Shown here: piece by piece, positions 1 to 58,241 of the stretch
How positions within the stretch are numbered: position 1 is the first letter of the stretch
Layout of the letters: each line of letters starts with the position of its first letter
Origin: Botryllus schlosseri
Lineage: Eukaryota
Length of the DNA stretch: 64,000 nucleotides
Assembly (NCBI GenBank): GCA_051294905.1
Contig: CM119371.1
Coordinates: 28,026,001 to 28,090,000 of the forward strand
Direction: 5' to 3'
Position numbers and translations under genes: made by a program
Notes under the pieces: model-generated
Told to the model about the DNA's origin: nothing
Database searches by the model: none
What the model saw: the letters and a program-made list of their open reading frames with translations, nothing else

Positions 1-915
1 GCACCAAGAAAAACCGTGTGAATTTGTAAAGTAGTTAGAAAACTAAACTATTCCGCTACACTAAAGACTTTGACAATCCGGATTTTGTATGGTGTATACT
101 AATTTTACATTGCGGAGTATTCATTATTATGTAGCTTGTACCTCATGCAAGTAAGTCGGACAAATTCGTCGCATGAACACGACTCTAATGGACATAACGA
201 AATGAAAATTTTGTCAAGTAGATCTTTTTCAGTATGCTAAATGTGATGTTGTTCCATACCGAATAGCACTCGTCAAGGTTATACAAGCATAACCCTGGTT
301 TCAACACTTTTACAGCGATTCTTCTTGCTTCCTATAACATCCCACTCGAAGCCCTCGTTATTAGACTATGATCTCAGCCTGAGCTATGTCTTGAAGCCTA
401 CGGGACTCTGCAAATTGTTTCGATTTAAGGAAGCCCATTTCACTTAATGTATCGATGTCTACGGTACTCTACAAAATTTTCTGATTAATTCTCCCTATGT
501 TAATTTACCATAAGAAAGACAATTTGACTCCTAAAGTCCGAAATACTTGTTCGCTTGAGCTAAGCCGCAGCGCCTGGAGTGGAATTTCATAGTTCTTGTA
601 AAAAGTTGTTTGTACACAATATATGTTTAAGGTAAGTCCTACTCATTCATGATTTCGTCCGAGTTTGTATTTTAGTAGTATATACTAATTTACGATACCG
701 CGTTTGTAACTTATGCAAGTACAGGAATATCATAGTTCTTGAACCGTGCTCAATGCTTAATAGACCATTTTTGCTATTTTTCATTACCATAAGTCATTCT
801 GGACCGCGTAAACGCATTGTACGATATAGATGAAACTTATGCAAATCCTAGGATCCTCATTTTCAAAGTAGCTTAGATATCGAAATAAGCTCTGACTCGC
901 TATTCTCCTCATAGC

Positions 916-972
916 ATGGAATTATCACGAGTATCACCTTCGATCACTGAAGAAAAGGATGAAATACTTTAA
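916..972 (+). pseudogene. Truncated 5' copy of the Bcl-2-family gene (MELSRVSPSITEEKDEIL*), preceded by a copy of its upstream region
   Basis: About 620-970 aligns to about 2480-2825, then diverges at a TAA. Mirror copy at 8248-8304. Confidence 0.8.
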
Positions 973-1179
973 GTAGTACTTAACAGTTTCGGAATATAAA
1001 CTAATCGAAAAATTCGGTAATCAATTTCGCTTAGGCTATGCATACAAATGAGGAAAGTTACATCAACGCGTGTTAACGAGTTTTATCGAGTTATCGAATG
1101 ATTTTTTTCTTACATCAAAATAACTAAAATGTGTAACTACATTAAAACGTATCTAAATGAGCTCCAGGGCATTGCGATT

Positions 1180-2210
1180 ATGCAGCATACCAAATTGCAT
1201 CACACATTTCATGATGTAACAACTTTAAAACTAACGCAGTTCTATAGCAACTTTTGCCTAAATCTGTTTTCGGTAGCGTGTACATATACATAGTCAGCTT
1301 TAATAACAGAATTACCATGCTAATATGTGACTCCTCACCTTGAAACTTGGTACGTAGTTGTAGTGTTTATGCAGTATACCAAATTTCCTCACGCATTTCA
1401 TAATGGAACAACTTTAAAACTATCGCGGCTCTACATCAACTTTTTGCGTACATCTGTTTTGCGGGAGCGTATAGCACGTACCTATACATAGTCAACTTTA
1501 ATAACGGAATTACCATGCTTAACATTGCATCCCAACTCTAAACTTGATACGTAGTTGTAGGACATTATGGCAATGCACCATGCTAAATTTCATCACACAT
1601 CTAATGATGGAACACCTTTAAAACTAACGCAGTCGAATACCGACTTTTACGCATATCTGTTTTGCGTGAACATAGCATATACCTATCCATATTCAATTTT
1701 AATAGCAGAATTACCGTGTTAAACATTGAATTCCCACCGTGGAAGTTGGTACGCGGTTATAGGACAGTATAACAATGAACCATACCAAATTCCATCACAC
1801 ATTTCATGATGCTGGAACAACTTTAAAACTAACGCGGCTCTACATCGACTTTTTGCGTACATCTGTTTTGCGGGAGCGTATAGCACGTACCTATACATAG
1901 TCAACTTTAATAACGGAATTACCATGCTTAACATTGAATCCCAAGTCCAAACTTGATACGTAGTTGTAGGATATTATGGCAATGCACCATGCTAAATTTC
2001 ATCACACATCTAATGATGGAACACCTTTAAAACTAACGCAGTCGAATACCGACTTTTACGCATATCTGTTTTGCGTGGACATAGCATATACCTATACATA
2101 GTCAATTTTAATAGCAGAATTACCGTGTTAAACATTGAACTCCTACCTTGGAAGTTGGTACGCGGTTATAGGACATTATAACAATGCACCATACCAAATC
2201 CCATCACACA
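1180..2210. repeat. Tandem satellite, ~204-bp unit, ~5 copies, with alternating A/B variants (~408-bp dimer)
   Basis: The motif aaaacta(a/t)cgc recurs near 1227, 1416, 1620, 1825 and 2028. Mirror array at about 7010-8040. Confidence 0.9.
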
Positions 2211-2770
2211 AAAACTCGTAGATACTCAAGTAGAAGGCGCACCCATAAATATATACTCGACTGCAAGTGGAAGTCGTGATTCTCAAGTAAGCAAAATGTA
2301 AGTATTCATGAGTTGGTTTAAATGAAGATTGTCAAGTATAAGTAGCATAAACATCATATTTGTAGTAGCATGTCCTCAAGATATTTTCAGTTCGGTCTAA
2401 TTTCACGCTGCTTACCAATTTACAAGCCGCAGTGCGAATTAGCATTCATAGAAATTGTACATAATTTTTGCATGTCGGGTGTTTAAGGTAATTCCTACGC
2501 ATTCATGATTTCGTCCGAGTTTGTATTTTAGTAATAATTTACGATACCGCGTTTGTAACTTGTGTAAGTAGGCCTTCAGGAATATCATAGTTCTTGAACC
2601 GTGCTCAATGCTCAATAGACCATTTTTGCTATTTTTCATCCCCATAAGTCATTCTGAATCGCGTAAACGCATCGTACGATATAGATGAAAGTTATGCAAA
2701 TCCTAGGATCCTCATTTTCAAAGTAGCCTAGATCTCGAAATAAGCTCTGACTCGCTATTTTCCTCAAAGC

Positions 2771-3640
2771 ATGGAATTACCACGAGTATCACCTTCGATC
2801 GCTGAAGAAAAGGATGAGATTATATCCGAAGCACATTCCTTGACCAGGAATTTTATCATGTACGAACTCGATGGCTCATGCGTTAAGGTAAATACGAAAG
2901 CAGAGAGAACCTTACGTCGAGTCGGGGATGAAATGTTCGAGCGACATCGAACTGTCCTAAACGCAGTCTCCAAACGTCTCCGCTATAGCGATGTCGAAGT
3001 CAATGAAAAATATAAAGAATATTCACCCGATGAGCGAATGTTCCTGATGATAGCTGATGAAATTTGCAAAGATACCAAAGAAAATTGGGGCAGGATTGTC
3101 GCCCTTTTTGTGTTCGGTAGCATTCTTGCTCGCAAGAACGAGGATGAACATCATGGGGAGCATATAGAAGCTATCATACAGACAGTCGGAAATTACATTG
3201 CTAGCAGAAGACTAAAGTGGATAGTGCGAAATGGAGGATGGGTGGGTGATTTACATGCTTTGCTTAGGATTTATAAATTATCTTTTAGCATGAGATATAT
3301 AGTGTATCCGCTCCCCAGAGCCCATATCATCTCTCGATGATGAAACTCAGCTTTACCTTCCAATTCGGTTCCCGATACGATAACTTTCATCCGTATGATC
3401 ATTAAGGCTTCTATTTTTGTTGTAGGATGGCTTTGTAGAATTCTTTGATAATACCGCTTTCGACTACAATAAAGTTTGGAAGGGACTCGTGTTTGTCGGG
3501 ATCGGACTGACATCTATTGCAATGGCATTATCAAGATAATGGATGTTCGCGTGTTTTGTCTCATGTAATATTTTAAGAATAAAATTCTTCATCGTTTAAT
3601 TGCATCCATTTTACTGTAGGACCTATACAGTTTCTTCTGA
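2771..3640 (+). CDS. Bcl-2 family apoptosis regulator; exon 1 2771-3241, predicted exon 2 3620-3640 (163 aa)
   Basis: BH3 TLRRVGDEM, BH1 NWGRIVALFVFG, BH2 WIVRNGGW. A GT donor follows GGW, which is the conserved BH2 intron position, and the AG at 3618-3619 restores GGW-DLYSFF*. Confidence 0.9.
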
Positions 3641-3997
3641 GAATACTCGAAGGATTGTACCCATATGGAAACCTTCTTTATACTTTTATTTTTTCTAATT
3701 TCTACAGCTACGTAAGGAAATTGTTAGGATTACCCAGAATACATTGCAGGTCAAATTTGATTCAATTACGAGCATTATAGCGACAGAGATTTACGATAGT
3801 GTAAAATGACCTACCTTACGATATCAAATTTCGTCTTCTCTCCGAGTGGAAATCTCATGTTATATAATATTGTCCATACCGAACAAATATAAATTTGCCT
3901 GTGCTGTTGCTTTGCAAGAATACTTCGCTCACATAGTAACCAATTTCTGGTGGATCCCGAATCGATATAGACAGAAGTGCGGAAAGTTACATTGACA

Positions 3998-4472
3998 TGT
4001 CTTAACTTCTGCCATAGAAGTTGCGTTTCTGACTACTTAAAAGTTGCTAGAGCTCACGCTGTTTTATCGTCGTATTGACGTTCGTTTTGAAAAGTATAGC
4101 ATGCTCAATGGTTCATGTTCACATTATACAGTTAATTAGGTTTTGCGCAAAGAAAAATAAAATTCACGCAAAAGTCGCTATTGCTCCGCGATGATTTTGA
4201 TGTTGTTCCATGCCGATTTGGGAGGTAGTACACTTTGTCTTAACTTCTGCCATAGAAGTTGCGTTTCTGACTACTTAAAAGTTGCTAGAGCTCACGCTGT
4301 TTTATCGTCGTATTGATGTTCGTTTTGAAAAGTAGCATGCTCAATGGTTCATGTTCACATTATTCAGTTTAATTAGGTTTAGCGCAAAGAAAAATAAAAT
4401 TCACGCAAAAGTCGCTATTGCTCCGCGATGATTTTGATGTTGTTCCATGCCGATTTGGGAGGTAGTACACTT
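3998..4472. repeat. Two tandem copies of a ~238-bp unit (mirror at 4748-5222)
   Basis: tgtcttaacttctgccatagaag occurs at about 3998 and 4236 with colinear continuation. Confidence 0.9.
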
Positions 4473-5579
4473 AATTTCGTAAAGTACGCATATTCGCGGC
4501 GTGTTCAATTAACTCATGTGGCTCTAAAATGTAGTAAGCAGGGTGATGGGTATTCGTTGAGTTGAATAACCATAAAAAATATTCCCGCGCCCTAGGTTGT
4601 AGGGGTTAGGAATAGTTGGGTTTAGGAGGGCGCGGGAATATTTTTTATGGTTATTCAACTCAACGAATACCCATCACCCTGCTTACTACATTTTAGAGCC
4701 ACATGAGTTAATTGAACACGCCGCGAATATGCGTACTTTACGAAATTAAGTGTACTACCTCCCAAATCGGCATGGAACAACATCAAAATCATCGCGGAGC
4801 AATAGCGACTTTTGCGTGAATTTTATTTTTCTTTGCGCTAAACCTAATTAAACTGAATAATGTGAACATGAACCATTGAGCATGCTACTTTTCAAAACGA
4901 ACATCAATACGACGATAAAACAGCGTGAGCTCTAGCAACTTTTAAGTAGTCAGAAACGCAACTTCTATGGCAGAAGTTAAGACAAAGTGTACTACCTCCC
5001 AAATCGGCATGGAACAACATCAAAATCATCGCGGAGCAATAGCGACTTTTGCGTGAATTTTATTTTTCTTTGCGCAAAACCTAATTAACTGTATAATGTG
5101 AACATGAACCACTGAGCATGCTATACTTTTCAAAACGAACGTCAATACGACGATAAAACAGCGTGAGCTCTAGCAACTTTTAAGTAGTCAGAAACGCAAC
5201 TTCTATGGCAGAAGTTAAGACATGTCAATGTAACTTTCCGCACTTCTGTCTATATCGATTCGGGATCCACCAGAAATTGGTTACTATGTGAGCGAAGTAT
5301 TCTTGCAAAGCAACAGCACAGGCAAATTTATATTTGTTCGGTATGGACAATATTATATAACATGAGATTTCCACTCGGAGAGAAGACGAAATTTGATATC
5401 GTAAGGTAGGTCATTTTACACTATCGTAAATCTCTGTCGCTATAATGCTCGTAATCGAATCAAATTTGACCTGCAATGTATTCTGGGTAATCCTAACAAT
5501 TTCCTTACGTAGCTGTAGAAATTAGAAAAATTAAAAGTATAAAGAAGGTTTCCATATGGGTACAATCCTTCGAGTATTC

Positions 5580-6449
5580 TCAGAAGAAACTGTATAGGTC
5601 CTACAGTAAAATGGATGCAATTAAACGATGAAGAATTTTATTCTTAAAATATTACATGAGACAAAACACGCGAACATCCATTATCTTGATAATGCCATTG
5701 CAATAGATGTCAGTCCGATCCCGACAAACACGAGTCCCTTCCAAACTTTATTGTAGTCGAAAGCGGTATTATCAAAGAATTCTACAAAGCCATCCTAAAA
5801 CAAAAATAGAAGCCTTAATGATCATACGGATGAAAGTTATCGTATCGGGAACCGAATTGGAAGGTAAAGCTGAGTTTCATCATCGAGAGATGATATGGGC
5901 TCTGGGGAGCGGATACACTATATATCTCATGCTAAAAGATAATTTATAAATCCTAAGCAAAGCATGTAAATCACCCACCCATCCTCCATTTCGCACTATC
6001 CACTTTAGTCTTCTGCTAGCAATGTAATTTCCGACTGTCTGTATGATAGCTTCTATATGCTCCCCATGATGTTCATCCTCGTTCTTGCGAGCAAGAATGC
6101 TACCGAACACAAAAAGGGCGACAATCCTGCCCCAATTTTCTTTGGTATCTTTGCAAATTTCATCAGCTATCATCAGGAACATTCGCTCATCGGGTGAATA
6201 TTCTTTATATTTTTCATTGACTTCGACATCGCTATAGCGGAGACGTTTGGAGACTGCGTTTAGGACAGTTCGATGTCGCTCGAACATTTCATCCCCGACT
6301 CGACGTAAGGTTCTCTCTGCTTTCGTATTTACCTTAACGCATGAGCCATCGAGTTCGTACATGATAAAATTCCTGGTCAAGGAATGTGCTTCGGATATAA
6401 TCTCATCCTTTTCTTCAGCGATCGAAGGTGATACTCGTGGTAATTCCAT
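5580..6449 (-). CDS. Bcl-2 family gene, mirror copy; exon 1 6449-5979, predicted exon 2 5600-5580
   Basis: Encodes the same protein as the 2771-3640 copy. Confidence 0.9.
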
Positions 6450-9219
6450 GCTTTGAGGAAAATAGCGAGTCAGAGCTTATTTCGAGATCTAGGCTACTTT
6501 GAAAATGAGGATCCTAGGATTTGCATAACTTTCATCTATATCGTACGATGCGTTTACGCGATTCAGAATGACTTATGGGGATGAAAAATAGCAAAAATGG
6601 TCTATTGAGCATTGAGCACGGTTCAAGAACTATGATATTCCTGAAGGCCTACTTACACAAGTTACAAACGCGGTATCGTAAATTATTACTAAAATACAAA
6701 CTCGGACGAAATCATGAATGCGTAGGAATTACCTTAAACACCCGACATGCAAAAATTATGTACAATTTCTATGAATGCTAATTCGCACTGCGGCTTGTAA
6801 ATTGGTAAGCAGCGTGAAATTAGACCGAACTGAAAATATCTTGAGGACATGCTACTACAAATATGATGTTTATGCTACTTATACTTGACAATCTTCATTT
6901 AAACCAACTCATGAATACTTACATTTTGCTTACTTGAGAATCACGACTTCCACTTGCAGTCGAGTATATATTTATGGGTGCGCCTTCTACTTGAGTATCT
7001 ACGAGTTTTTGTGTGATGGGATTTGGTATGGTGCATTGTTATAATGTCCTATAACCGCGTACCAACTTCCAAGGTAGGAGTTCAATGTTTAACACGGTAA
7101 TTCTGCTATTAAAATTGACTATGTATAGGTATATGCTATGTCCACGCAAAACAGATATGCGTAAAAGTCGGTATTCGACTGCGTTAGTTTTAAAGGTGTT
7201 CCATCATTAGATGTGTGATGAAATTTAGCATGGTGCATTGCCATAATATCCTACAACTACGTATCAAGTTTGGACTTGGGATTCAATGTTAAGCATGGTA
7301 ATTCCGTTATTAAAGTTGACTATGTATAGGTACGTGCTATACGCTCCCGCAAAACAGATGTACGCAAAAAGTCGATGTAGAGCCGCGTTAGTTTTAAAGT
7401 TGTTCCAGCATCATGAAATGTGTGATGGAATTTGGTATGGTTCATTGTTATACTGTCCTATAACCGCGTACCAACTTCCACGGTGGGAATTCAATGTTTA
7501 ACACGGTAATTCTGCTATTAAAATTGAATATGGATAGGTATATGCTATGTTCACGCAAAACAGATATGCGTAAAAGTCGGTATTCGACTGCGTTAGTTTT
7601 AAAGGTGTTCCATCATTAGATGTGTGATGAAATTTAGCATGGTGCATTGCCATAACGTCCTACAACTACGTATCAAGTTTAGAGTTGGGATGCAATGTTA
7701 AGCATGGTAATTCCGTTATTAAAGTTGACTATGTATAGGTACGTGCTATACGCTCCCGCAAAACAGATGTACGCAAAAAGTTGATGTAGAGCCGCGATAG
7801 TTTTAAAGTTGTTCCATTATGAAATGCGTGAGGAAATTTGGTATACTGCATAAACAATACAACTACGTACCAAGTTTCAAGGTGAGGAGTCACATATTAG
7901 CATGGTAATTCTGTTATTAAAGCTGACTATGTATATGTACACGCTACCGAAAACAGATTTAGGCAAAAGTTGCTATAGAACTGCGTTAGTTTTAAAGTTG
8001 TTACATCATGAAATGTGTGATGCAATTTGGTATGCTGCATAATCGCAATGCCCTGGAGCTCATTTAGATACGTTTTAATGTAGTTACACATTTTAGTTAT
8101 TTTGATGTAAGAAAAAAATCATTCGATAACTCGATAAAACTCGTTAACACGCGTTGATGTAACTTTCCTCATTTGTATGCATAGCCTAAGCGAAATTGAT
8201 TACCGAATTTTTCGATTAGTTTATATTCCGAAACTGTTAAGTACTACTTAAAGTATTTCATCCTTTTCTTCAGTGATCGAAGGTGATACTCGTGATAATT
8301 CCATGCTATGAGGAGAATAGCGAGTCAGAGCTTATTTCGATATCTAAGCTACTTTGAAAATGAGGATCCTAGGATTTGCATAAGTTTCATCTATATCGTA
8401 CAATGCGTTTACGCGGTCCAGAATGACTTATGGTAATGAAAAATAGCAAAAATGGTCTATTAAGCATTGAGCACGGTTCAAGAACTATGATATTCCTGTA
8501 CTTGCATAAGTTACAAACGCGGTATCGTAAATTAGTATATACTACTAAAATACAAACTCGGACGAAATCATGAATGAGTAGGACTTACCTTAAACATATA
8601 TTGTGTACAAACAACTTTTTACAAGAACTATGAAATTCCACTCCAGGCGCTGCGGCTTAGCTCAAGCGAACAAGTATTTCGGACTTTAGGAGTCAAATTG
8701 TCTTTCTTATGGTAAATTAACATAGGGAGAATTAATCAGAAAATTTTGTAGAGTACCGTAGACATCGATACATTAAGTGAAATGGGCTTCCTTAAATCGA
8801 AACAATTTGCAGAGTCCCGTAGGCTTCAAGACATAGCTCAGGCTGAGATCATAGTCTAATAACGAGGGCTTCGAGTGGGATGTTATAGGAAGCAAGAAGA
8901 ATCGCTGTAAAAGTGTTGAAACCAGGGTTATGCTTGTATAACCTTGACGAGTGCTATTCGGTATGGAACAACATCACATTTAGCATACTGAAAAAGATCT
9001 ACTTGACAAAATTTTCATTTCGTTATGTCCATTAGAGTCGTGTTCATGCGGCGAATTTGTCCGACTTACTTGCATGAGGTACAAGCTACATAATAATGAA
9101 TACTCCGCAATGTAAAATTAGTATACACCATACAAAATCCGGATTGTCAAAGTCTTTAGTGTAGCGGAATAGTTTAGTTTTCTAACTACTTTACAAATTC
9201 ACACGGTTTTTCTTGGTGC

Positions 9220-11560
9220 GTTCCAGGATAAATGCAATTTTTTCGCGCTTTTTTATTTTTTCAATTAAATTGGAGCTACTGTATATTATTAATCGCCTAT
9301 ATTTAAATTCGGTGTGCTAATGCGTTGAGGTTGAAGCTAAACATCCTATTTCATGCGGCCAAGAAGACTAGCACCGCGTATCCGAATTTAGCATACCGAA
9401 AAATATCTACTTTACAAAATTTTCATTTCTTTATGTCCCTTAGAGTCGTGTTCATGCGACGAATTTGCCCGACTTACTTGCATGAATTACAAGCTACATA
9501 ATACAACTAGTTAACACGCGTTGATGTAACGTTCCTCATTTGTATGCATAGCCTACGCGAAATTGGATGATATTTGAAGGCGAAGAACTAACGAAATTTA
9601 AAAATAGCAAAAATAAATCGAAAATTTGCGAAGTCCTACCTTGCAATATTTCAGTTTTACAAATTACCCTCGAAGTGAACCAGCATGTTGGATATTATCG
9701 AAACGATTTCTCATGTCGCGTTCCGGGATAAAATGTAGTTTTTCGCTCTTTTTTATTTTTATTTAAATTAGTATTCATTTTACAAAAAACGTCGTGTAAA
9801 GGTGAAGTACTTGTACATTTCGTAGTGCTCAAGTATAAGTTTTTTGCGTAAAGTCTATCTTGCATTTAGTTGTCAGCTCTGAAAGCAAGCAAAGTTTGTG
9901 TATTTGCGCAACATCGAAATTTGTACACTTCACGCTTATCTTATGTCGAAAACATAAGCTAGTTAACAATCTTTCGAATCGTATTTATTTTTAAAAAACC
10001 TAAATATGCCGCATCAAAACTTCGTAAATTTTTTCGATTAGTTTTTTCGTTTCTATCTACTTTAAAAGACTCATTCAGACCTCGAACCTACGCGAACACT
10101 TGTTCATTGGAACTTACGTCCAACGCCAAAAGCTCTACTTTACAAAATTTTCGGAGTACCGACTTTTTTGGGTAAATTCTGTGATGCGCTTAGTTACCAA
10201 CTCAGAAAGCAAGAAAAAGTTGTGGTATTTGATCAACATGGAAATTCGTCAACTTTGCGTTTAGGTTATGTTGAAAACATGAGTTACTTAACAACATTTC
10301 GACTCATAGGTGTGGATAATTCACCGTACATAGTATTAAAGTCATTAATGCATCGGTCGCAATTCTGCTCGAATACAAGTACAAGTAGAGATTTCAAAGT
10401 TAGTGGGCTTTTTTATTTTTATTTTTTCATTAAAATTGGAGCTACTGTATATTATTTATCGCCTATATTTAAATTCGGTTTGCTAATGCGTTGAGGTTGA
10501 AGCTAAAACATCCTATTTCATGCGGCCAAGAAGACTAGCACCGCGTAGCCGAATTTAGCATACCGAAAAATATCTACTTTACAAAATTTTCATTTCTTTA
10601 TGTCCATTAGAGTCGTGTTCATGCGACGAATTTGTCCGACTTACTTGCATGAATTACAAGCTACATAATACAACTAGTTAACACGCGTTGATGTAACGTT
10701 CCTCATCTGTATGCATAGCCTACGCGAAATTGGTTACCGAATTTTTCGATTAGTTTATTTAAAACTGAAACTGTTAAGTACTACTAAAAGTGTTATAAAA
10801 TGTGAAAAAGTGTACAAGTAGAATTAATATTATGTCATGAATAAGTAGTTTACAAATTCATACGATTTTTCTTGTTGCGTTCCGGGATAAAATGTAATTT
10901 TTCGCTCTTTTTTTCCTATTTTTTATTAAAATTAGTATTCATTTTACAAAAATGTCGTGTTTTGACTTTTGAAAATGGAAAATGCGTGAGCTGGACTAAC
11001 TTTTACGTAGTTCGAAATCGCTACTTCTATACATTATTTCAAAGTATTTGTCAGTCATCGCGGCACCGCTCATATTGCGCACCATCTATTAATTTCACGG
11101 ATAACAAATTACTCCTGCTTTTATCAGAGGATACTTTCCTAGGGTTTGCCTACTAACAGTACTTAGTTTAGATTATTGAAAAATATAGTGATTGAAAATA
11201 GATCACTGGATTATAGTTTACAGAAAACTCCACAATTCTATGTGACGTCCTTGCATGCCAACAACCTACTATTCGCCACCTCATAAACACTTGAGTAGGC
11301 CTACATTTGATGCGTGTGGGGAAAACCTAGGTAAATTTTCATATGCATTTAGTTTCCAGCTCTGAAAGCAAGCTTGGTATATGATCAATAGCAACTTTTG
11401 CGTGAACTCCGTTCTATTTCACTTCATACCTACACAATGTAGATAGTCTATTCGAATAATTCGATGTATAATTGAACTTTCCTCTGCATGATCATCAGGG
11501 CTTCTATTTTTTGTTGCAGGGCAACTTTGTTGTAGCCGAAAGCGGTATTATCTAGCAACA
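9220..11560. repeat. Patchwork of direct copies of palindrome-arm modules
   Basis: 9250-9570 matches 10410-10730; 10680-10790 matches 8143-8250; 11480-11550 resembles the Bcl-2 intron (about 3385-3470). Confidence 0.8.
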
Positions 11561-11639
11561 AGGTTTAAATGACTCGCCTCCGGCGTTTATTGACCGTATT
11601 ACCCTATTCTCGTCATGCAAAAATTATGCATGTATTAGT

Positions 11640-11935
11640 ATGAAGCTCAGATGCTGCAAAGTGTGTGAGACTGCCTGTAAATGGTGCGAAGCAGCGACTC
11701 TAATTTCCCGACTTATAGCAAACAACGACGCTGAAATTTTACTTCAGACGCAGCAAAGTGTGTGAGACCGCCTGTAAAATTGCGCGAAGGTACATTTCTC
11801 GGCTTATAACAAATAACGACGCTGAAATTCTACTTCAGATGCAGTAAAGTTAATGCGTTTGGCTATATAAATTGCGCGAAGGTGCATTTCTCGGCTTATA
11901 GCGAATAACGACGCTGAAACTCTACTTCAGATACA
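11640..11935. repeat. ~91-bp tandem repeat, ~3 copies
   Basis: aacgacgctgaaa..tacttcaga occurs near 11724, 11815 and 11906. Confidence 0.8.
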
Positions 11936-12261
11936 GCAAATGCGGCAAACAAAACGGTCAGATCGAACGCAAGAACTCGGATCGCAGCGTCGGATGGCAG
12001 CAAAGCGGTGTACCTCGAAACATCAACCGATCTGGAGGATTTCAGCACGCGAATCGACGCAATGACGATCAACGATATCATTGATATGCTCTTTTTTCGA
12101 AATAAAATGAACTCGTACACTATACAATGCTATTTCAATGAGACTGAGTAAAGTGTTAGAAGATACGAAAAGCGCGGAATAGTATGACATGTGGTGACTA
12201 TAGGGTTCGAACCTACAACCTAGATCAGGCGCTGTGCGTCATATAGATGCTGCAATCAATG

Positions 12262-12425
12262 CGGTGATGATGTGGCAATGGATGATGTGGCACTATAGGT
12301 GTGGGGCTTGATGATGTGACACAGATGAATGTGGCAGGTGATGTGGCAATGGGCGGATGATGTGGCAATAGGTGTGCTATAGGTGCGGCAATGGGCGGAT
12401 GATGTGGCAATGTAGGCGTGGCAAT
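12262..12425. repeat. Degenerate minisatellite (gatgatgtggcaatgg-type)
   Basis: Repeated gatgtggca motif; it also generates His/Pro-rich spurious ORFs. Confidence 0.8.
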
Positions 12426-14090
12426 TAAGGCGACGTGGCCTTCTGGGATTGGCGGGCGTATATTTGATCAAACCCTACTACTTCTGTCATGTGACGCAAT
12501 AATTGGTAATGTATACTACTCCAACTACCTCATTCCTTGAGTGACGACAGCTTACAAGGAATCATGATGCAACGTACTAATTGCTCAATTGATAATTACA
12601 TTTTTTCTGAAACATTGTCTTCACATTTACACTATTTACAAACCGTGATATTATATTGGTCATATTTCAAACGCTCTCTCACTAGGATTATAGATCAGGG
12701 ATCAGAATACCATTCGAAATTCTTGCCACGCTAACCCCAACCAAATACTGTACTAAAAATCAGGCAGATCGCTGCAGTATTGCTCGCCTGTAGCTGGGAT
12801 ATTTTATGGGTTCGCCTATAGTATAAATTATTTTGCGAATATTTACTTCAAATTTGCATGTTCCTCATGCCAGTGTACCGGAAATGTGATGATATTCTTA
12901 TGGAGCAGGGGCGGGCAACTTCTCCAATCGGCGGGCCGGATATAGGAAAACTAAGTTAGGCTACTTGGCGGGTCGGATTGCTGAATCGATACATTATTCG
13001 CCCATATGTACAAGGAATAGATCGTATTTCATGAATGTATTTTGACGACAGCAATGTTACTTCAGCGCCATTTCTCGCCGATAATGACGAAGACAATGCG
13101 GGTTTGAGAACAGTATTGTCATAGTCGCCGCCATGTCTGCTTCTCTCTGATCAATAAACTCACGGTGCAATCCTTACTTAAGATTTCAAATCGTTTGATA
13201 AGCCCGGTACCCAAAATTTACCAAGATATCAATTCATTAGGGTTGAGTACATCGTACATGCCGATAATGCAAGTCTTCTCGCTTCGACAAACTTACGCAT
13301 AAGCTCCATGGACGCTCTCACACGCTGCGCAGTGCGAACACGTATCTAATAACAGTCATACAGTCACTAAAATCTGACGTTTAGGCAAGTAGTGGGGAAT
13401 CTCGGCCGACTGAGGTCACGGGCCCGCGGGTCGTATATGTTGTCCGTCCTTATGGACGGTCCTAGATAACAATCTGCTGACTATCCCATTTTGCTCGCGG
13501 GAGCTGTAGAGTAGACGTACACGGTACCTCACCACCGTGAAGTAAACCTCACCAAAACGGACTCTGTAAAACTATTACCAGGAATTAGATTCGCATCATG
13601 GCTAGTTTAAGCGATAATGACATCCAAAATATCAATAATACAAGTGCTAGAAAAGGTACTATACTTATGATATTAAAGTATTTGAAAGTATGGAATATGT
13701 ATCAAGTATGATATGGAAAATGGAACAATGTTGGTATGGTATGGAAAATTGCAAGTATGGTATGGAGAGAGTAAGGCAAGTATGGAGTATGGAAAATCCT
13801 CGTTCCATACCATACCATACCATGCCCTGGTTGGCAGTTCACAAGTGTAGTAGTGTGGTGGGTGTTTCGATATTATTTTTGTAATGCCCGGGGAATTATA
13901 ATGATATTTTGCGCTACTGAATGTGATCAGGTGTCATCCATGCCCAGTTTATATTTCAAAGTTGAGATGTTGACTACCAGAGGGTTTGTCATCATTGAAT
14001 TAAGTATCACTGAGCTATCGTAGGGTTGCCATACGTCCAGATGTCCGTAATGTTAGTATTAAAACTGCCTCCGAGGGAAAATACTAGAAC

Positions 14091-14816: not shown

Positions 14817-15330
14817 TACTATAATAGGCCTAAATGTCTGGAATTTTCGTAATTTAGGAGATCAATAACAAATGACGTGTACCCTTTCGAATTACTCGCG
14901 TTACTCATGTGGAGTTTGGTTACGTTGATCAGTTCCCACGTTCTCACGTTCGGATGATGTTTCCACTTCCACGTCAACAGTTAAAGAACAATATTCCCCA
15001 TGTTTCGAAACGTAGGTGCTTTCCCGTGGAAATTGATATTCAAGTAGATTCTCATCACTTTGGCTAGGGAAATTACATAACAGATATGCAATGTAAGATT
15101 GAGCACGGTCGTAACAGATTGTTTCGAAAATAGAAGCTATTCTCATGGTGAATATTCTGCGCTGATATCATACATCAACTTGTTCAGGCTACTCAATTCA
15201 ATAGTTCTCATACCCCTACCTCCCACTTCTACTACATGTAGCTTTGGCTTGCTCTAAATATTGCTACTTCTACTTTTGATTAGAAGTTGAAGGTGATATA
15301 ATTCTACTTTTCAAGCTATAATCTTTTGAA

Positions 15331-16797
15331 ATGAACCCTTTCCGACTTCGTAACGGCTGCGATGATCATATTTGCGAGGTATGCGGGAAAAGTTTCATCA
15401 TCAAATCCTATCTGACAAGACACATGAAAATTCACGCCGTGTCGAAGGAGTTTGAGTGCGACGTATGCGGAAAAAGCTTTGTGCAGAGGCCTTACCTAAT
15501 AACTCATCTCGCGTTCCACACGATAAAGAAAGATTGTAAGTGCGGCATATGCGGGAGATCATTCAACACTAAATAGAAGTTGAGGACACACGTGAGCATC
15601 CACGCCGGGATAAAAGCGTTTGAGTGCGAAATATGCGGGAAAGGTTTCATAAAGAAGGAACATTTGAAAGCACATTATTTGAGTCATATTGGAACGAAAA
15701 ATTACCATGAGTGTCAGATATGCGGCAAAGGATTCGGGAAGAAATCTTATCTGAGATGTCATTATTCGATTCATACTGAGGCGAAGGATTCCGAGTGTGA
15801 TATATGTGGAAAAGGTTTCGTGCAGAAATCTCATCTTAGAGTTCATTATTCGATCCATACTGAGGCGAAGGATTACGAGTGTGATATATGCGGAAAAGGT
15901 TTCCGACAACATTCTGACCTGAGCAGCCATTGTTCGATCCATACTGAGGCGAAGGATTACGAGTGTGATATATGCGGAAAAGGTTTCCGACAACATTCTG
16001 ACCTGAGAAGTCATTATTCAATTCATACTGGAGCGGAAAAGTACCAATGTCGTGTATGCAAAAAAGTTTTTAAAACAAGATCTCAACTGAAAATACATTA
16101 TTTGATTCACACCAGAGATAAGGAACATAAGTGTGAAATCTGCGGGAAAGCATTTCGTTGGAAGTCGAACCTTAACGGGCACGTGAAGGTGATACACTGG
16201 AAAAGGACAAACTATGAGTGCGATATATGCGCGAAGGCTTTTCTGCAAGAGACTCATCTAAGACATCATTATGCCGCACACATGGACGCAAAATACCAAT
16301 GCGAGGTGTGTGGGAAACGCGTCAATCTCAAATATATGGAAAGACACATGAACATTCACGTCGGATTGGAAGAGTTTGAGTGCGAGGTATGTGCGAAACC
16401 ATTCGCCGACAAATTTCAAATGGGAGCACACATGAAATTTCACACCGGATTAAAAGAGTTTGCATGTGAGATTTGTGGTAAAGTATTCAGATCGAAGCCG
16501 TACGCTCAGATACACATGGAGTCGGCCCACTTAAACACGAAAGTATATGAGTGCGATACATGCGGTAAAGTGTTTCGGCAAAAATCAAACCTTTCGGCTC
16601 ACTATTCCGTCCACACGGGAACGAAATATCCGTGTGCAGTATGTGGGAAGATATTCAATGTCAAATCCTACTTGAGACAACACGGCAGGATTCACTCGGG
16701 AGTAAAAAAGCATGAGTGCGATATATGCGGGAGGATGTTCAGTGCAAAGAGTTCTCTTGTGTGTCACTTACGAATCCATAGAAGCGACGGAAGGTAA
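15331..16797 (+). pseudogene. C2H2 zinc-finger gene, 17 fingers, single exon, with one in-frame TAG at 15574-15576
   Basis: ORFs 15331-15576 and 15580-16797 share a frame. SFNTK*KLRTH aligns to SFNFKSNLRNH in the paralog. Confidence 0.9.
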
Positions 16798-19667
16798 GCG
16801 ACGATGCGACGATCCGTTGAACAATTCAAAGACGAGTCGCAGTGGTATAAATCGTCATCGCTGCCAGGAAATTCACCTGTTGTACTCATGGAAACGTTTT
16901 GATAAGTAGAAGTGACGTCACGGCATATCATATGATATATGCCTTGGTAACAATGGATTGGTGTGCTGCGTTCTTGCAGCATCGAATACATAGGAGACCA
17001 ATAAACATAATTATGACGCAACGTGAGGCGATTCAAGAGTGCGTGTACGATTCGCGTAATCATTTTTAACTGAGTTAGAAGACCTGGACAAAGTACAGAA
17101 ATCGGAATCGAACAGGAATGCATATGTTTGCGAAGGAATACGGATATGCTTATCTACTGTAAATTGGATATTATATGATATTATGAAGAGCAAATGGATG
17201 TCACGTGTAACGCTGAGTGTTCGCTTTTAAGGATTTTATCCACGTTTCATTCATGAAATGAGGCTTTATGCTTCCGTACTAGTTTTTACTCTTTGTAATG
17301 CAAGCTATATGGTGGAGAGGCACAACGCCTAGCAGAAGTGAGAAATGTCATAACATCCACCAAACTAGTAGAAACCCACTAAATTTCGGAATTTGCGCGC
17401 CAGATATGGTCCCCACTCCACCAAGATCATCTGGGCAGTCCAAATATCAATTATGATATTTAAAATTATCATTTTTCCATATCAGAGGTGGGCCGCATTC
17501 CAGGGCAAAGTCGTAATGAACTAATTATGTTAAACTGTCCAGTGCCCATGTTCATTTCCGGCGAACTTCGGACTATTCTACTTTTCGTATCGGCCAATTA
17601 TACGCACCGAAATCGCGAGTGGTAATCTTATGAATTGGCACTGTGATATGCTATGGTTTTTCAAATTTACGAATGGATTTCATGGTTAATAGCATGAGCT
17701 ATAGTATCACATATTACTATCAAATATTAATCCTTTCGCTGCCCATGTAATCAGAGTCACTAGTAGAGTTGATAGAGAGAGTGCTTTCGAAAATGTAGGG
17801 CAAGTTATAAATGATATCGCATCTTCGGGTGGGCCAGCTGTTATTAGTAACTTTGTTGTATGCTGTTATTTCTTGACCCCCTTCACGATTGTCGGTCTAG
17901 TCTAGTGGAAATAGATTGGAATCACCCAAATGTTCAGGAAACAAATTTCTTTCTTGAAGAGCACACATTCCGATTTCGGCTTACATTGCAGAAATCGGAA
18001 TCGAAAAATGAGATCGCATTGAATAGCGTGAAGCGCGAAGAATAATTTAAGATTGAATAAAATCTCTCAATAATTCGGGGGTGAATTCGAAATTTCAATT
18101 TGCATGTCGACGGCACACATACTAATTGAACTATCTCTACGTCCGCACAAATTTCCATCTACGGCCGCAGGTTGCCCACCCCTGATCTATATCCATCAAT
18201 TTGACGTTTTGCTACACGGATGGGGCAAAACGACTCCATTGGCATTTACCCTATTATGCCCTACTAAATACCGAATGCCACTGAGTCAGACATAAATTTT
18301 AATCCCTATGCAACCAGGGCTTTTCAGCTGGAGCAGGAGCAAGGTGTTGGAGCCCCGGAACCTGTATTGTCAGCGGAGCCGGAGCTCTAAATAAAATTCT
18401 GATGAAGCCGGAGCTGGGGCCGGTTGTTTGAAAAGTAGCTGTTGCTCAGGTGTATTTGATAAGATGCTATATGTTAATGCTTTTCACTGAATTCACAACA
18501 TTTTACGGTAATCTTTCACAAAATTAAGAATTGGTGCCTCGTTGATGCCGAATTTTTGAAACTAAGCATGATCCAATTGCTCAATTCTCATACATAACGC
18601 GCTAAACCTGGGTAAGCGATATATGTCATACGTCATACCCGGAATTTCGTACTCTGCGCGACACCGATGGCCAATAGAGCGGTTCGAAAAATATTGATCA
18701 CTATGTATTTCGCAAATAGGGACTGTGGCTTGTGTGAGTTGAGCAAATTCAGTAATGAGTATTTAGTCAGTGGTTCTAAAAGTGTGGTACGCCGGCACGC
18801 GTACCACAGTGGTACACGAGAGCTTCCTAGGTGGTACGCGAAGAGTGTTGTGAGTAATGTCGTACCTCAGATTGGCTAGCTTCTGCATAAGAAACAGTTG
18901 TAATTATCTCATTAATTGGTTCTTCCTTGCTATCCGTTGGTGTTGCGGTATTGTACTAACAGAATTAACCATAAAACACCGATACATTCAAGTAAAATAT
19001 GAAATTTAGGTGGTACAACCTGTAGTGAAAAACATGGTGTTGGATATAGCCTATTTGATAGGAATTAATGATTGAATGCGCGCTTTCCGGTATGTAAATC
19101 AGGGTTGTAACCAAGTCACATGGTTCCGAGTCACGAGTCAATCGTACTTTTGTGGTTTTGACTCGAGTCAAGTCCAGTCATTTTCAATTCATCACCGAGT
19201 CGAGTCCGAGTCCTAGTCACTGTTTAAAGGGTCAAGTCCGAGTCATACTGTTATGACTCGAGTCCGAGTCCAAGTCACAGTATTGAAGTCATGCTCATCC
19301 CATGTTTTCAATCCTGCTTTTGTGTGATATCGAATTCTTTGCTTGCCAAACATGCTTATTTTGTCCCTATCAGAGTCTTGGCACATGCTCCGTTCATGGA
19401 ATGATACGCTTTCAGGGGACTGGGAGGCCACATTAAAGGGGGCCCGACGACCACCCAGGGTCTCCTTTCACAGCCATATTCTAGCTATATCAACCAATCG
19501 GATATCTCCAGCGGCACTATTATCGGCCCGCTGACCGGCTGCAATATATCAAGTTCGTATTGATGATAAGTACTGTACTGTTTGATTGGTTTTTATTCAA
19601 GTATGTACATAAAATATCAATAATTTCATGAAGAAAATCTTTCCCCTTCATCGGGCGAAAAAGAATA

Positions 19668-19759: not shown

Positions 19760-20793
19760 AATATCAAATGATAAGTTCACCGACAGTGCAAAATCTACGA
19801 TACAAACGAAATGCTACAATTTTGACATGTAAAAAAATCGCCCTAATAATAACAAACTGAACAATCTGCAAAACCATATCGTTCACCAGTAGTATATATG
19901 ATCGCTCTGGGTGTGCCTTGGGCTCTTATGGGTGCGGCGGCGTGGTGCCGCGAAACTCGTGGTGGCATGGTGACCCTTTTGACCCTCCCTCTCGGTCGCA
20001 TGGTGCCATTACGTCATATTGGCTGCGGCGGTGATTCGTACTTTCAGGTATAGGCTGCGGCGGCACGGTGCCGTGAAAACTCGCGGTGGTGAGTAACCTT
20101 TTCAGGTATATGCGCGGTGACATGGTGACCTTTTAGGTATATATTGTTGATGATTTGACTGTAGAGGATGACGTACTCTATAATTTGACTAACGTTGCGG
20201 GTATAACTGCGGCATGGTGCTGAACATGTATCATCATGTATGGTAAATAGTCACGTGATTGGTCCTTAGTCAATGTGAACTATTTCAAATTATTATATAT
20301 GACCGATTCGAGTTAATCTTAACGTTTACGGTGAGCGCGACTTCAATATATAGTTATTCTTATGAGCGCGGCTGTGATTCACACTTTCGGGTATAGGCTG
20401 CGGCGGTATGTCGTACTTCCAGCAAAAAAAGTGTGAAATAATTTGCTAAATCTAGGAATCACTCGCGTGATAATAGTTTGGTTGTTGTTGTTGTTAGTAT
20501 TGTGCATATGGTGTTCAGCTACTATGGCCTTTTACACCAGGTCTCAAGAGTCTTACAAATCCTTCAGCGTCACAACTGTCTGCCAGTGAGTACAACGAAT
20601 TCAGCCACTGGCAGCAAAATCCGTGGATCTGACAACAGTTTTGTGGGCTGAAACGGTATGCCTAGATTCGCCGCTGTCGTCTTCAAGTGATCACGGTGGT
20701 TCGAATAGTTTGGTAATTAGTTTACCGCAGAGCAGTGATTTGAATACCACCGCTCAGTAAGTCAATACATATCCATTGTAGAATAATATTTAT

Positions 20794-20833
20794 TAACTCG
20801 AAGACTTTTCGGGTGCCTCTTTTCAAGAGTTAT
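20794..20833 (-). ncRNA. Minimal hammerhead-ribozyme-like motif (U3-A8 core variant)
   Basis: Inverted copy of the motif at 22446-22487. Confidence 0.65.
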
Positions 20834-20988
20834 CGGCACACTAAAGGGATTTAAACAGATTTAAAAGCAAAACCAAAAAGGCAAAGTATGACGCAACAAT
20901 CAAAATCACAAACCATGAAATTCACATTGTGCCAATGGCAACAATAACAAACTATGAAGTATACGGACATACGGTACTATAGTAGCAG

Positions 20989-21915
20989 GGTTTCCAGTAA
21001 ACTCGCCCCAAAGTAAATTCGGCCATTACATCAGTAAATTCGGCCCACCGAGAATATTGTATTAAAATGTATTACCAACCGTTAACATGAATTAATTACA
21101 TAATTATACTATTATTAAGTGATTTGGATGTCAGGGTATGCGTAGATCGCGTAATCACGGGAGATAGCGCGGATATTCACGGGGACCGAATTTACCGACG
21201 GCCGAATTCACCGGTCAATTCACTGGTTACTCGGTCAATTCTGCCCTCGGATAATTTTTTATAAAAATGTATTACCAACTATTAATGTGAATTAATTTCA
21301 TAATTATATTATTATTAAGTGATTTGGAGAACAGGGTATGCGTATAAATATATATATGTATATATATATGCCGATGTTTACGGGGCCGAATTTACCGACA
21401 GCCGAATTCAATCGGTATATTCGGCCCTCGGAGAACATTGTGTGAAATTGTATTACGAACTAATAATGTGTATTATATTACATAATTATAATATTATCAA
21501 GTGATTTGGAGGTTAGGGGTTAGGTTTAGGGTTAGGATTAGCGTTAGGGTTAGGATTAGGGTTAGGTTAGGTTAGGATTAGGGTTAGGTTAGGATTGGGG
21601 TTAGGTTAGGATTAGGGTTAGGATTAGGGTTAGGATTAGGGTTAGGTTACGGTTAGGGTTAGGTTAGGTTAGGGTTAGGTTAGGTTAGGTTAGGATTAGG
21701 GTTAGGATTAGGGTTAGGGTTAGGTTAGGATTAGGTTAGGATTAGGGTTAGGTTAGGATTAGGGTAAGGGTTCAGGTTAGATAATGGTATTGTAACTGTT
21801 ATTGTTACTCTGGCCCTGGCCGAATTTACCGAGGGCCGAATTCACCGACGGCCGAAGTGACCGAGGGCCGAATTCAACGGGCCGAATTTACCTTGGGCCG
21901 AGTTTACTGGCAATC
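20989..21915. mobile_element. MITE with a 9-bp TSD (tagtagcag), Mutator-like, with an internal telomere-type array
   Basis: Imperfect TIR ggtttccagtaaactcg / cgagtttactggcaatc. The empty target site is preserved in the inverted pLTR at 22281-22310. Confidence 0.85.
21511..21780 (+). repeat. Interstitial telomere-like array (mixed TTAGGG/TTAGG/TTAGGA)
   Basis: Read directly from the sequence. Confidence 0.97.
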
Positions 21916-22445
21916 TAGTAGCAGCACAATTTGTAAATAAACAATTACACGCACGGAACAACACGCACTAATGAGAAATTTGTAGGTTATAGAGGAAATC
22001 TATTTATCTGCATAAAATAGGTTTGCTCAACTGAATAATAGTAGACTCCAACACTTTTAAATGAAACGCAGACCTACCACGCGCAATGACAGTGAACATA
22101 TTGTCATCATAGTGATGTGCACAGGCAAGGTTTTCACTCAGATGCTGACCAATTGACGAAGCATATGCTTGGTAATCATCATAGCAGTCTGTTTTTGCAG
22201 CCAATTTGCAGTGACGTGCTAGCTCCGTTCTCATTAGTTCTCATTAGTGCATGTTGTTCCGTGCGTTTAATTGTTTATTTACAAATTGTGCTGCTACTAT
22301 AGTACCGTATGTCCGTATACTTCATAGTTTGTTATTGTTGCCATTGGTACAATGCGAATTTCATGGTTTGTAATTTTGATTGTTGCGTCATACTTTGCCT
22401 TTTTGGTTTTGCTTTTAAATCTGTTTAAATCCCTTTAGTGTGCCG

Positions 22446-22487
22446 ATAACTCTTGAAAAGAGGCACCCGAAAAGTCTTCGAGTTATT
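22446..22487 (+). ncRNA. Minimal hammerhead-ribozyme-like motif (U3-A8 core variant)
   Basis: ATAACTC-TTGAAAA-GAGGCACCC-GAAA-AGTCT-TC-GAGTTAT: 7-bp stem I and a UUC cleavage triplet, inside a Penelope pLTR. Confidence 0.65.
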
Positions 22488-22512
22488 AAATATTATTCTA
22501 CAATGGATATTG

Positions 22513-35656: not shown

Positions 35657-38117
35657 CGTTAGTGATTGGGTGAATCAAATTCGAAATGTAAGAACTATTT
35701 TGTCTGTATGACGTAATATTAACAAAAACAAACAACTAGTAGACGGGCAAGATACGGTAGTAACGGTACAAACCAAACGTTAACGAGTACATATTCGGTT
35801 ATTTATAACCGAATATGAAGTTATTGTTTCGCGTTAATATCTTTATTGTAGGCAGAATTTTATGTTCACTTTCTTATTCTCATATGTTTCGTAAGGTACT
35901 GCTAGACTCACAAAATTTTCAAATTGCGATATTTTATAAACAGTAAATGCTAGATTCCCAAATATTGGTGTGTAAGCTATTCACACTCAATTTCATATGC
36001 TGTAGAAATTTCAGCATTTCACATTGATTCCTTGGGCCCAAATTGGGAGGGGGATTGGTAAATCGGATGGTTGGCACGAGGAAACGCCTGTCTTATCCAT
36101 GAATGCTAAGAGATTCTAAGCAATGCTTTATAAAGTGTCCTGAGGCCTCTAAGTACCTGCTGAAATGCGTGAAACTTCCGATTTTAACAAAAATTTTACG
36201 AAATATTTGTTTGGTACTAGTACGGTGCCGAATTTTGGTAGTGGTAATTGCATATATTACTATTCAATTTTGATCCTCTTTCAGCCCTATGGTTAGATAT
36301 GCCTGTTGAGCTGGGAAAGTTCGTGTCGTCAAAAATTTAGGGCGCATAATATAATTACACCATCTTCGGGCGGGCCTATTTCGTAACATCCTGTCTGCTG
36401 TATAGTCAAAAGATATTGAAGTAACCCAAACGTAGCAGCCTATAAGAAAACGAAATAAAATCTTTTGTGAGTCGCACACACAAATTGTCACTTCTTCGCG
36501 GGGCGCATCATTTTCCTCTGTGGGTGCCCCGGGTGACATTTATATTGGGAGGACCTGATTAAGAGCAAGAAAAGATTATTAGTCAAGCACATCCGGCACG
36601 GGTATGGACAATGGATGCATACACAAGGTTTCGGCCACGGTACACTTCGTGAATTCACATGTTGACCGAAATTGCATATGCCTTGATGTGTCGTGGCACA
36701 GTAATGACTCGCGCCGAAATGGCTACTTCTATTTCTATAAATAATGAATATTTTTCTCGAGCGCGAGAGGTATGCATTTCAAAATCCAGATATTAAGCGA
36801 CATTCAATCGCAAAGCGCGAAGAGAATTTTCAATTTGATTAAACCTCTCAAAAATACTCTATTATATTTGTGGATTTACAAAATAATTTTGTGTTCCGTC
36901 GAGCTTTCTCTCCACCCTAGTTGAAGTTTTGGTTACGGCCCAGGCTAGAATGCATATCGTTGTGTGCGAGAAATCGTCCGCTATCGGGTTGAGTAATGGG
37001 TATAGTATGGCGTACATGGTAAATGACGTCATGATGACACATTTAAAAAGAAAGTTGATCTCTCATGAGACCTTCATCGCAATCGTTATATTATTTCCCA
37101 ATATGTGTTCAAAGATATATGTAATCGTGAGTAATCGTGATTACTTTTTCATTGTAATCGTAATCGTAATCGACTACTTCCATATTTTGCTGTAATCGTA
37201 ATCGTAATCGTGATCGTGGGATTCACAAGTAATCGTAATCGCAATCGATTACATTCATGAAGTAATCACCCCAGCATGTCTGATCAGTTGCAATATAATA
37301 TTAATAAGTTCATCTCATCGTTCCTGATATATTTCTTTTGTTGTTTTGAGATCAAGTCAAGAGATATGAGACGCATATGAGTATTGTATAGTTAGGCTCT
37401 TCATGGACATAATTGATAGAGATATACTCCTCTTTCACCTATGTAGAATGAACAACTGCTACAAGAAAAATACATTTTTGTTGTGCAGAACTACAATTTT
37501 TATAGGATTGAAAAACTACTTTTTTGATAAACAAAGCTATCGAATTATGTCATGTTCATATTTATTGAATAACGGATGACGACGTGAGGGTTATTTATAT
37601 AGTCAATTATCTATTCATTCGGAGCTTAAAGATAATAAATGTACTATTTACTTCCTACCAAGTAGAATATTTAAGGGGTTAAATACAGTAATGTCGCTTT
37701 TTATGGGTATACGTATCTCCTAAAGTAGAGCCAATCTGGTGAGAATAATGTGATATTCGTGATCCGCAACCTCAAAAACCCCGAAAGTACTTCTATAGAT
37801 GTTCTGCCAAAAACAAAATCCATTTTGTTGATCACATTTTATCGTCTGAAAATCAGTCTCGCTACAAAACTCTTCATTCTCTTATCTCTAACTACCGCTA
37901 AATTGTATTTGCGTTGTATTTGAAATTGGTCTATGATACTGTGTATTATTTTTACTTTCGTTCGTTAGTTTATTTTGATTTTTTTTTTCATTAGTTATCG
38001 ACTGTGAAAATTGCTCCTGTCCCGGGTGGCTCGGCTCTGAAGTCTATGTCATATCTAGCCTCCCGTCTATACCTTGCATGTCGCATTTCACTGTTACATT
38101 TTTGTAGTGTTATGTTG

Positions 38118-39355
38118 ATCAAATATTATTTGACAAGACACATGAAAATCCATGCCACGTCGAAGGAATTTGAGTGCGACATATGCGGTAAAAGTTTTTT
38201 GAAAAGGCCTTACCTAACAAGTCATCTCTCGTTCCATGCAGCAAAGAAAAATCATAAGTGCGACATATGCGCCAGATCATTCAATTTCAAATCGAGCTTG
38301 AGAAATCACATGAAAATTCATGCCGGGGTGAAAGAGTTCGAGTGTGAAATATGCGGGACAGGATTTGTAAGGAAGGCTCTTCTAAAAACACATTATTTGA
38401 GTCATACTTGGACGAAAGATGGCAAGTTTCAGGTATGAAGCAAAGATTTCGCCCAGAAATCCTATCTGAAACTGCATTATTTGATTCATGCGAAGGCGAA
38501 GGATTATGAGTGTTATATCTGCGGAAAATCTTTTCGAGAAAATTCCAGCCTGGAAAAACATTATTCGATTCATACTGGAGCAAACGACTACGAGTGTCAA
38601 ATATGTGGAAAGGGTTTCAAAACAAGATCTCAACTGAAACGTCATTATTTGATTCACCGATTCCCACCGATCATTAGGAACATCCGTGCAAATTTTGTGG
38701 GAAAACGTTTCTTAAGAAGTCGTATGTTATGGCGCACATCAAGATGATACACTCGAATACCAGAGAATATGAGTGCGATATATGCGCGAAAGCTTTTGTG
38801 CACGAGTCTCACCTAAAGTATCATTATTCTTCCGTCCACATGGAAATGAACTACCAGTGCGAGGTATGTGGTAAGCCATTCAATCTCAAATCCAGTATGG
38901 TTAGCCACATGAAAATTCATGTCGGATTGAAAGAGTTTGAGTGCGATGTGTGTGCGAAATCATTCGTAGAAGAATCCCACATGAGATCACACATGAAATG
39001 TCACACCGGATTGAAAGATTTTGTATGCGAGATTTGTGGTAAAGCATTCCGTTCGAGGTCGTACATTAAGATACACATGTAGTCGACTCACTTACAGACA
39101 AAAAGATATGAGTGCAATATATGCGGGAATGCCTTTCGACAAATGACCAACCTAATAGGTCACTGTACCGTCCACACGGAAAAGCAATACGAATGTGAAG
39201 TATGTGGAAAAATATTCAATCTCATATCCAACTCGATAAGGCACAGCAAGATTCATTTGGGAGTAAAAAAGCATGAGTGCGACATATGCGGGAGGACATT
39301 CAGTGAAAAGAGTTCTCTCGTTCGTCACTTACGAATCCACGGAAGCGACGGGTAG
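38118..39355 (+). pseudogene. C2H2 zinc-finger pseudogene, paralog of the 15331 and 59624 genes
   Basis: Four ORF pieces in different frames and a TAG at 39080-39082. The 5' end is replaced by a repeat that recurs inverted at about 48960-49075. Confidence 0.9.
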
Positions 39356-39367
39356 TAAGGATGCGAC

Positions 39368-57987: not shown

Positions 57988-58241
57988 GTCTAATTACATA
58001 CTCTTGAATCGCCCTGCTGCATTATAACAATGTTTATTGATCTCTTTTGTATTCGATGCTGCGACTGACGTCAATACCGCAGCAGGAAAATTCAATGTTA
58101 CCAAGATATCATATTATATGTCATGATATCACTTCTACTTATCAAAACGTATCCACGGACGTAGCAGAGGAACTTCTGGTTGCGACAACAATTTCTACTA
58201 CAGCGATCCGTCTTAGATTTGTCCCACGTATCGTAGCATCC

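Follow-up and report, generated by a model that had tools for sequence, protein, structure and literature searches.

The 64-kb window analysed here, a stretch of 64,000 nucleotides, opens inside a long and nearly perfect palindrome, whose centre raises the question of whether a short sequence seeded the palindrome on the chromosome or whether the palindrome arrived with its centre already in place. Self-comparison paired positions 1-4593 with 4627-9219 with seven substitutions and no indels (99.85% identity), and the preliminary description was right that a 33-nt stretch between them is the only unpaired part, that it lacks C and that it has five G runs. The palindrome comprises:

1-4593, left arm, truncated at the window edge
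4594-4626, + strand, unpaired loop, 33 nt, C-free and G-rich on this strand, with two TTAGG
4627-9219, the portion of the right arm with its mirror inside the window
9220-12482, putative outer right arm, whose mirror would lie before the window start and whose end follows from the candidate terminus described below
624-965, + strand, partial copy (91%) of a Bcl-2-family gene's 5' end and of the sequence upstream of it; mirror 8255-8596
1180-2210, tandem array of ~200-bp units in both arms; mirror 7010-8042
3998-4472, 237-bp tandem duplication in both arms; mirror 4748-5222

Internal repeats of the inner arm recur in the outer right arm as far as 11552. Since each tandem duplication has its mirror in the other arm, the arms appear to have been homogenised after the duplications arose. 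The 237-bp unit probably recurs very often in these arms; it has a motif in common with the 200-bp array, and contig depth peaks at 4412-4475 in two of the public runs considered below (X1 and X2). Five of the seven arm differences have other copies in the window (169/9051, 1363/7857, 1564/7656, 3422/5798 and 4108/5112), and in all five the odd base lies in the right arm (p about 0.06), a bias that could reflect consensus error in the second arm of the hairpin, one-way copying or chance. Because the odd bases were confined to one arm, dating the palindrome by its seven arm differences was dropped.

The loop itself is a real, non-random sequence. It consists of 15 G, 11 T and 7 A, with five runs of at least two G and only two runs of at least three. 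As background we took 33-nt windows on both strands of 4627-64000, with the TC tract and the telomeric array masked; only 4 of these 117,826 windows were C-free with at least 14 G, and 70 reached the G4Hunter score of the loop (1.18). Two TTAGG occurred in 0.9% of 100,000 loop shuffles. Regarding the degenerate TTAGG/TTAGGG units described earlier, the two TTAGG stand, while exact TTAGGG is absent from the loop, which does not qualify as a tandem telomeric repeat. The suggestion that the loop is prone to G-quadruplex formation fared similarly when folding was checked computationally: a two-tier motif is present and the best 25-nt window scores 1.36, but the loop has no canonical three-tier motif and its minimum-energy fold in ViennaRNA contains no G-quadruplex. 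With the G4Hunter threshold for a G-quadruplex-forming sequence at about 1.2, the predicted potential of the loop is borderline. A 12-bp identity between the loop start (4592-4603) and subterminal positions 12212-12223 was rejected as a link, as it was noticed post hoc and was matched by 20 of 1,000 Markov shuffles and by three other tiles of 148.

The loop had been placed in a ~143-bp core with ends like those of hAT MITEs, and a dispersed family of such cores had been proposed as a genome-wide device that forms palindromes and duplicates genes. The features that bear on this proposal are:

4539-4681, the proposed 143-bp core; a real hairpin with a 55-bp stem, its ends unsupported as element ends
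4525-4590, central stem, left copy, ~65 bp, common to at least three arm types (in X1, X15 record 15 and X16 record 22)
4630-4695, central stem, mirror copy of 4525-4590
39368-39941, 49269-50206, 51574-52668 and 61316-62231, hAT-like MITEs with perfect 8-bp target site duplications (TSDs), several with AGTCA-type short repeats
20989-21915, element with a telomeric-type centre (GGTTAG-type array at 21511-21780) and a 9-bp TSD, a length characteristic of Mutator-like elements

The fold of the core is unremarkable, as any symmetric cut from a palindrome folds likewise, and its mirrored ends are uninformative, as any CAGGG inside a palindrome yields a mirror CCCTG. The left arm contains two CAGGG, against about two expected by hand calculation. 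Six hAT-like MITE candidates with 8-bp TSDs lie in the window (the four listed have perfect ones), and the MITE at 39368-39941 indeed has CAGGG..CCCTG ends; what failed was the kinship of the core to it. Like hAT MITEs, the core is short, with CAGGG at 4539 and CCCTG at 4681; unlike them, it has neither a TSD nor a supported boundary, and it has only 6 nt in common with the local hAT end. No 8-bp TSD flanks the core, the flanks being inverted rather than direct (a weaker point if fold-back replaced one flank). A search of 148 tiles found no second copy of the core in the window, the top match being the telomeric array, and the 19 of 94 loose ends listed from the contigs of four runs included no boundary at 4539 or 4681, where depth also takes no step. 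Rfam gave no match at the gathering score, with five generic miRNA-hairpin matches all below it. For the MITE at 20989, the telomeric centre noted earlier was found, and its similarity to the core is confined to G-rich repeats.

To what extent is the centre found elsewhere? Parts of 2200-4700 were present in 19 of 24 listed public runs, from 10 studies, and we compared contigs of four runs (X1, X2, X15 and X16) with 4236-4690 (455 bp). X1 is the probable source run; X16 carries the same organism label and comes from another sample and study. The figures from this comparison rest on 19 of 94 loose ends and 32 of 1,077 pieces listed, and flank contigs whose overlap was no more than 30 bp may be absent from it. 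In X15, a 93-bp contig (record 16) covered 4564-4656 without a difference at depth 2, its make-up of 30+33+30 being that expected for a palindrome in a 31-mer graph, and an arm contig ending at 4593 had a depth of 4.19. The opposite-strand joint 4593/4626 appeared in one contig each of X16 (record 21) and X2. The arm-loop junction is real at family level, having been found in three studies besides X1, and the loop is biological rather than adapter or read noise. That the junction turns up in X16, an assembly of only 1.5 million letters, suggests a sequence present in multiple copies. Contig depth was rejected as an estimate of copy number, as depth is no measure of copies.

The same contigs revealed how the centre varies. 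Loose ends near it, among the 19 of 94 listed, lay at 4482-4487, 4492, 4525, 4590 and 4666 (mirror 4554), and homology between arm types breaks at 4482-4492, 4525, about 4554-4559 and 4573. Three arm types occur in X15 alone (records 13, 14 and 15), and the element belongs to a multi-copy family with subfamilies, several arm and loop types being present per run; in this respect, the idea of a repeated centre held up. At 4525, contig depth in X1 jumps from 3.5k to 35k, whereas the course over 4539 is smooth (32.9k at 4531, 39.4k at 4538 and 43.1k at 4544). The X1 flank at 4525 is a single sequence (11 contigs, agreement 0.97), found also in X15 and continuing there for 218 bp, and so uniform a flank indicates that what is abundant is a related, longer element whose arm differs, rather than a MITE at many sites. 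This type has a different loop after 4590, of which the last 25 of the 30 letters listed hold no C, ten G and two TTAGG, bearing out the expectation that related centres carry TTAGG-like loops. It would be symmetric, judging from a contig that crosses 4525 unbroken and ends 34 letters past the stem. Within 4596-4626, none of the five substitutions and four insertions listed (mostly from one X2 contig, the listing leaving out six indels) adds a C, whereas two changes at the stem border, at 4593 and 4595, do. The centre is a conserved stem with a variable G-rich, C-free loop, common to several subfamilies. Two contigs depart from symmetry, which would not be expected if the family were strictly palindromic. 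X2 record 29 follows the arm exactly for 98 bp on one side and for only ~35 bp on the other, where 90 letters without a placement come next; in X1 record 7, the match to the reference stops at 4573 and at 4685. Both contigs may represent genuine unequal-arm forms, favouring fold-back at a short inverted repeat, or graph chimeras.

What the centre belongs to is suggested by the outer end of the right arm:

12266-12482, candidate terminus of Polinton/Maverick type, with six G-rich subterminal ATGTGGCA repeats and ACTACT at 12477-12482

Outward from 11552, a 92-bp tandem is followed by the six ATGTGGCA copies and then by ACTACT. All copies of ATGTGGCA in the window lie at this candidate terminus; the ACTACT hexamer by itself is found at 37 places in the window, and the terminus is the right end alone, the left end lying beyond the window. 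Mavericks/Polintons carry an (AGT)2//(ACT)2 end motif, according to the available text of PMC8097293. Mirroring 12482 about 4610 gives a putative length of 15,745 bp and would place the left end 3.26 kb ahead of the window start. We consider it likely that loop and stem form the midpoint of a ~15.7-kb, near-wholly palindromic, non-autonomous element of Polinton/Maverick type with a host-type Bcl-2 gene in each arm. Compared with Polintons/Mavericks as the accessible part of PMC8097293 presents them, the element is alike in its candidate (ACT)2 3' end motif and putative size of ~15.7 kb, and unlike in that no core genes were seen, the inverted repeat is nearly full-length, the centre is 33 nt and the cargo is Bcl-2. 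The arm ORF list contained no pPolB, integrase, capsid, ATPase or protease (Pfam was run on two proteins), and the longest stop-to-stop frames in 4627-12482 were 198 aa (Bcl-2), 142 aa and 103 aa.

Scans of IMG/VR with the stem, the Bcl-2 gene and the terminus returned no matches. Three metagenome matches to a stem-gap-stem pattern were rejected, all having a GC content of 64-73% and no similarity to the window. The palindromes of PLVs and virophages, in the part of 10.64898/2026.07.28.741278 at hand, are 52 nt long and terminal, as opposed to the central turnaround seen here. A published description of such palindromic Polinton satellites was not found in a literature search whose coverage excluded most subscription journals.

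Both arms carry the same predicted cargo:

2771-3241, + strand, exon 1 of a Bcl-2-family gene (Pfam PF00452, E 1.7e-22), ending at the GGW motif and followed by a GT donor
3426-3539, + strand, predicted exon 2, 37 aa with a hydrophobic tail, behind an AG acceptor preceded by a pyrimidine tract (putative splice)
5979-6449, - strand, mirror exon 1
5681-5794, - strand, mirror exon 2

Each arm thus contains one intact two-exon gene, as predicted, and both genes converge on the centre. The cellular-type intron after GGW has been kept, which suggests capture of Bcl-2 at the DNA level, and read-through of two copies converging on a hairpin would give long double-stranded RNA. A search for homologues gave nine candidates, none significant.

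Under the Polinton-type reading, the palindrome most likely comes ready-made with each insertion rather than being formed at the locus, and the loop would be an inherited snap-back turnaround, not a chromosomal seed. The idea of a MITE acting as a palindrome device is not borne out. A dispersed hAT-like MITE at 4539-4681 that triggers palindrome formation in chromosomes, and with it gene duplication, at many independent sites would account for CAGGG ends resembling those of the MITE at 39368, for a stem depth in X1 of 35-49k against 2.6-3.5k for the arm, for the departure of X1 record 7 at 4685, 4 bp from 4681, and for the ~35 bp of stem on one side of X2 record 29. We nevertheless regard it as very improbable: depth steps at 4525 and runs smoothly over 4539, the 4525 flank is one sequence over 218 bp, just 1% of the compared contig sequence in X1 continues into dissimilar sequence (against 23-26% for X2 and X15), and the contigs listed show no position where many molecules begin (30-bp overlaps possibly being missed). 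The resemblance to the hAT end amounts to 6 nt, and mirrored ends are automatic in a palindrome. With no boundary at its ends, relatives sharing one flank at 4525 and a Polinton-type end outside, the core does not behave as the gene-duplicating device once envisaged. A single-copy fold-back duplication of the host Bcl-2 locus, shared among individuals, would fit the cellular-type intron and a junction common to several runs; it is improbable given that a single run contains several types of arm and loop, that the junction was assembled in a 1.5-million-letter contig set and that the palindrome has a candidate Polinton-type end.

That the palindrome is a fold-back artefact of library or assembly, or an adapter, we judge least probable of all. 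Arms as alike as these, an odd base in the right arm at all five testable sites and contig support that is at family level rather than from long reads of this exact locus are what such an artefact would look like; against it stand the same junction in three other studies and natural loop variants. The window also sits 22 Mb or more from the end of its sequence, and this interior chromosomal position excludes a contig-end fold-back. A further explanation concerns the origin of the centre and is compatible with a Polinton-type palindrome: the founder's fold-back point may once have been supplied by a short-inverted-repeat element with a telomeric centre, or by a tract that telomerase added to a broken linear molecule, leaving the present centre as a functionless relic. 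An element with a telomeric centre and inverted ends does exist in this genome (20989-21915), the loops resemble decayed TTAGGG tracts that slippage would keep C-free, and short inverted repeats seed palindromes in Tetrahymena, as the available text of PMC5182062 has it. Since the core and the 20989 element have only a 28-bp G-rich repeat in common (E 6.8), and the stem persists even beside arm DNA that was exchanged for other sequence, which suggests constraint, we hold this origin to be possible but doubtful.

How a Polinton-type palindrome might be maintained can be put as a scheme. Polinton replication is known chiefly as a model. A helper Polinton's protein-primed polymerase would start copying at the AGTAGT end, in line with the model of protein-primed copying from the terminus (10.64898/2026.07.28.741278, in the part available). 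Because it is self-complementary, the displaced strand would snap back on itself, giving a hairpin that retains one terminus and turns at the G-rich loop. The full palindrome would then be regenerated either by synthesis that continues through the loop or, where a break or stall has occurred, by fold-back priming at the central stem; any change in one arm would be transferred to the other, and the helper's integrase would insert the product. The stem would be conserved because it must stay paired, and the loop could drift freely while keeping a telomere-like G-rich strand. We infer these replication steps from sequence; that differing arms, each symmetric, surround a common centre means that one arm must be rebuilt from the other, for which the stem would be the natural place to fold back. 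Whether the centre acts in this is a separate matter: we suggest only tentatively that it is a working cis-element, a conserved fold-back stem with a loop selected to be telomere-like and G-rich, by which arm is rebuilt from arm in each cycle. Equally tentative is a role of the G-rich loop in polymerase stalling, or in capping by host telomere-strand proteins. If true, such a cis-element would allow arms to be swapped and to take up host genes such as Bcl-2 with symmetry kept perfect, and the centre would correspond, in mobile form, to the Tetrahymena M-repeat and would preserve a readable record of Polinton replication.

Several known systems offer partial parallels. The pGKL1 hairpin plasmid and its inverted dimer, reportedly described by Kikuchi et al. 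in 1985, are said to derive from a linear, protein-primed replicon, to be palindromic and helper-dependent, and to have a half-form that is a hairpin; unlike the element, this is a cytoplasmic yeast plasmid and not integrated. Literature searched on telomeric-centre MITEs, hairpin plasmids and adenovirus inverted duplications yielded nothing directly relevant. The snapback genomes of AAV (PMC8235507, accessible portion) resemble the proposal in being self-complementary subgenomes with one terminus duplicated, a loop and replication by helper proteins; they are transient particles of variable length from a Rep/hairpin-primed virus, whereas here a fixed, germline-integrated family has a shared centre. 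In Tetrahymena, the centre of the rDNA palindrome combines conserved 42-bp repeats with a non-conserved 28-bp spacer, according to the text of PMC5182062 that is available. The centre studied here likewise joins a short conserved inverted repeat (~35-65 bp) to a short variable spacer (~29-34 nt). The rDNA palindrome differs in being a programmed somatic chromosome formed at a breakage site and not integrating, and a G-rich bias goes unmentioned in that part of the source. Symmetric yet subfamily-varying arms around a shared stem and variable loop provide a defined site for testing snap-back replication, and the element illustrates a route for doubling and spreading an intron-containing host gene.

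Further repeats and genes lie beyond the palindrome. The element at 20989-21915 is inserted in the left arm of an outer element (20769-22510) with 98% inverted arms. Inside the MITE at 51574, positions 51705-52247 form a diverged 540-bp inverted repeat, whose centre is without a TTAGG-like loop. Finally, four related C2H2 zinc-finger arrays, ~72-78% alike, are located at 15322-17040, 38091-39370, 53177-54309 and 58000-59627.
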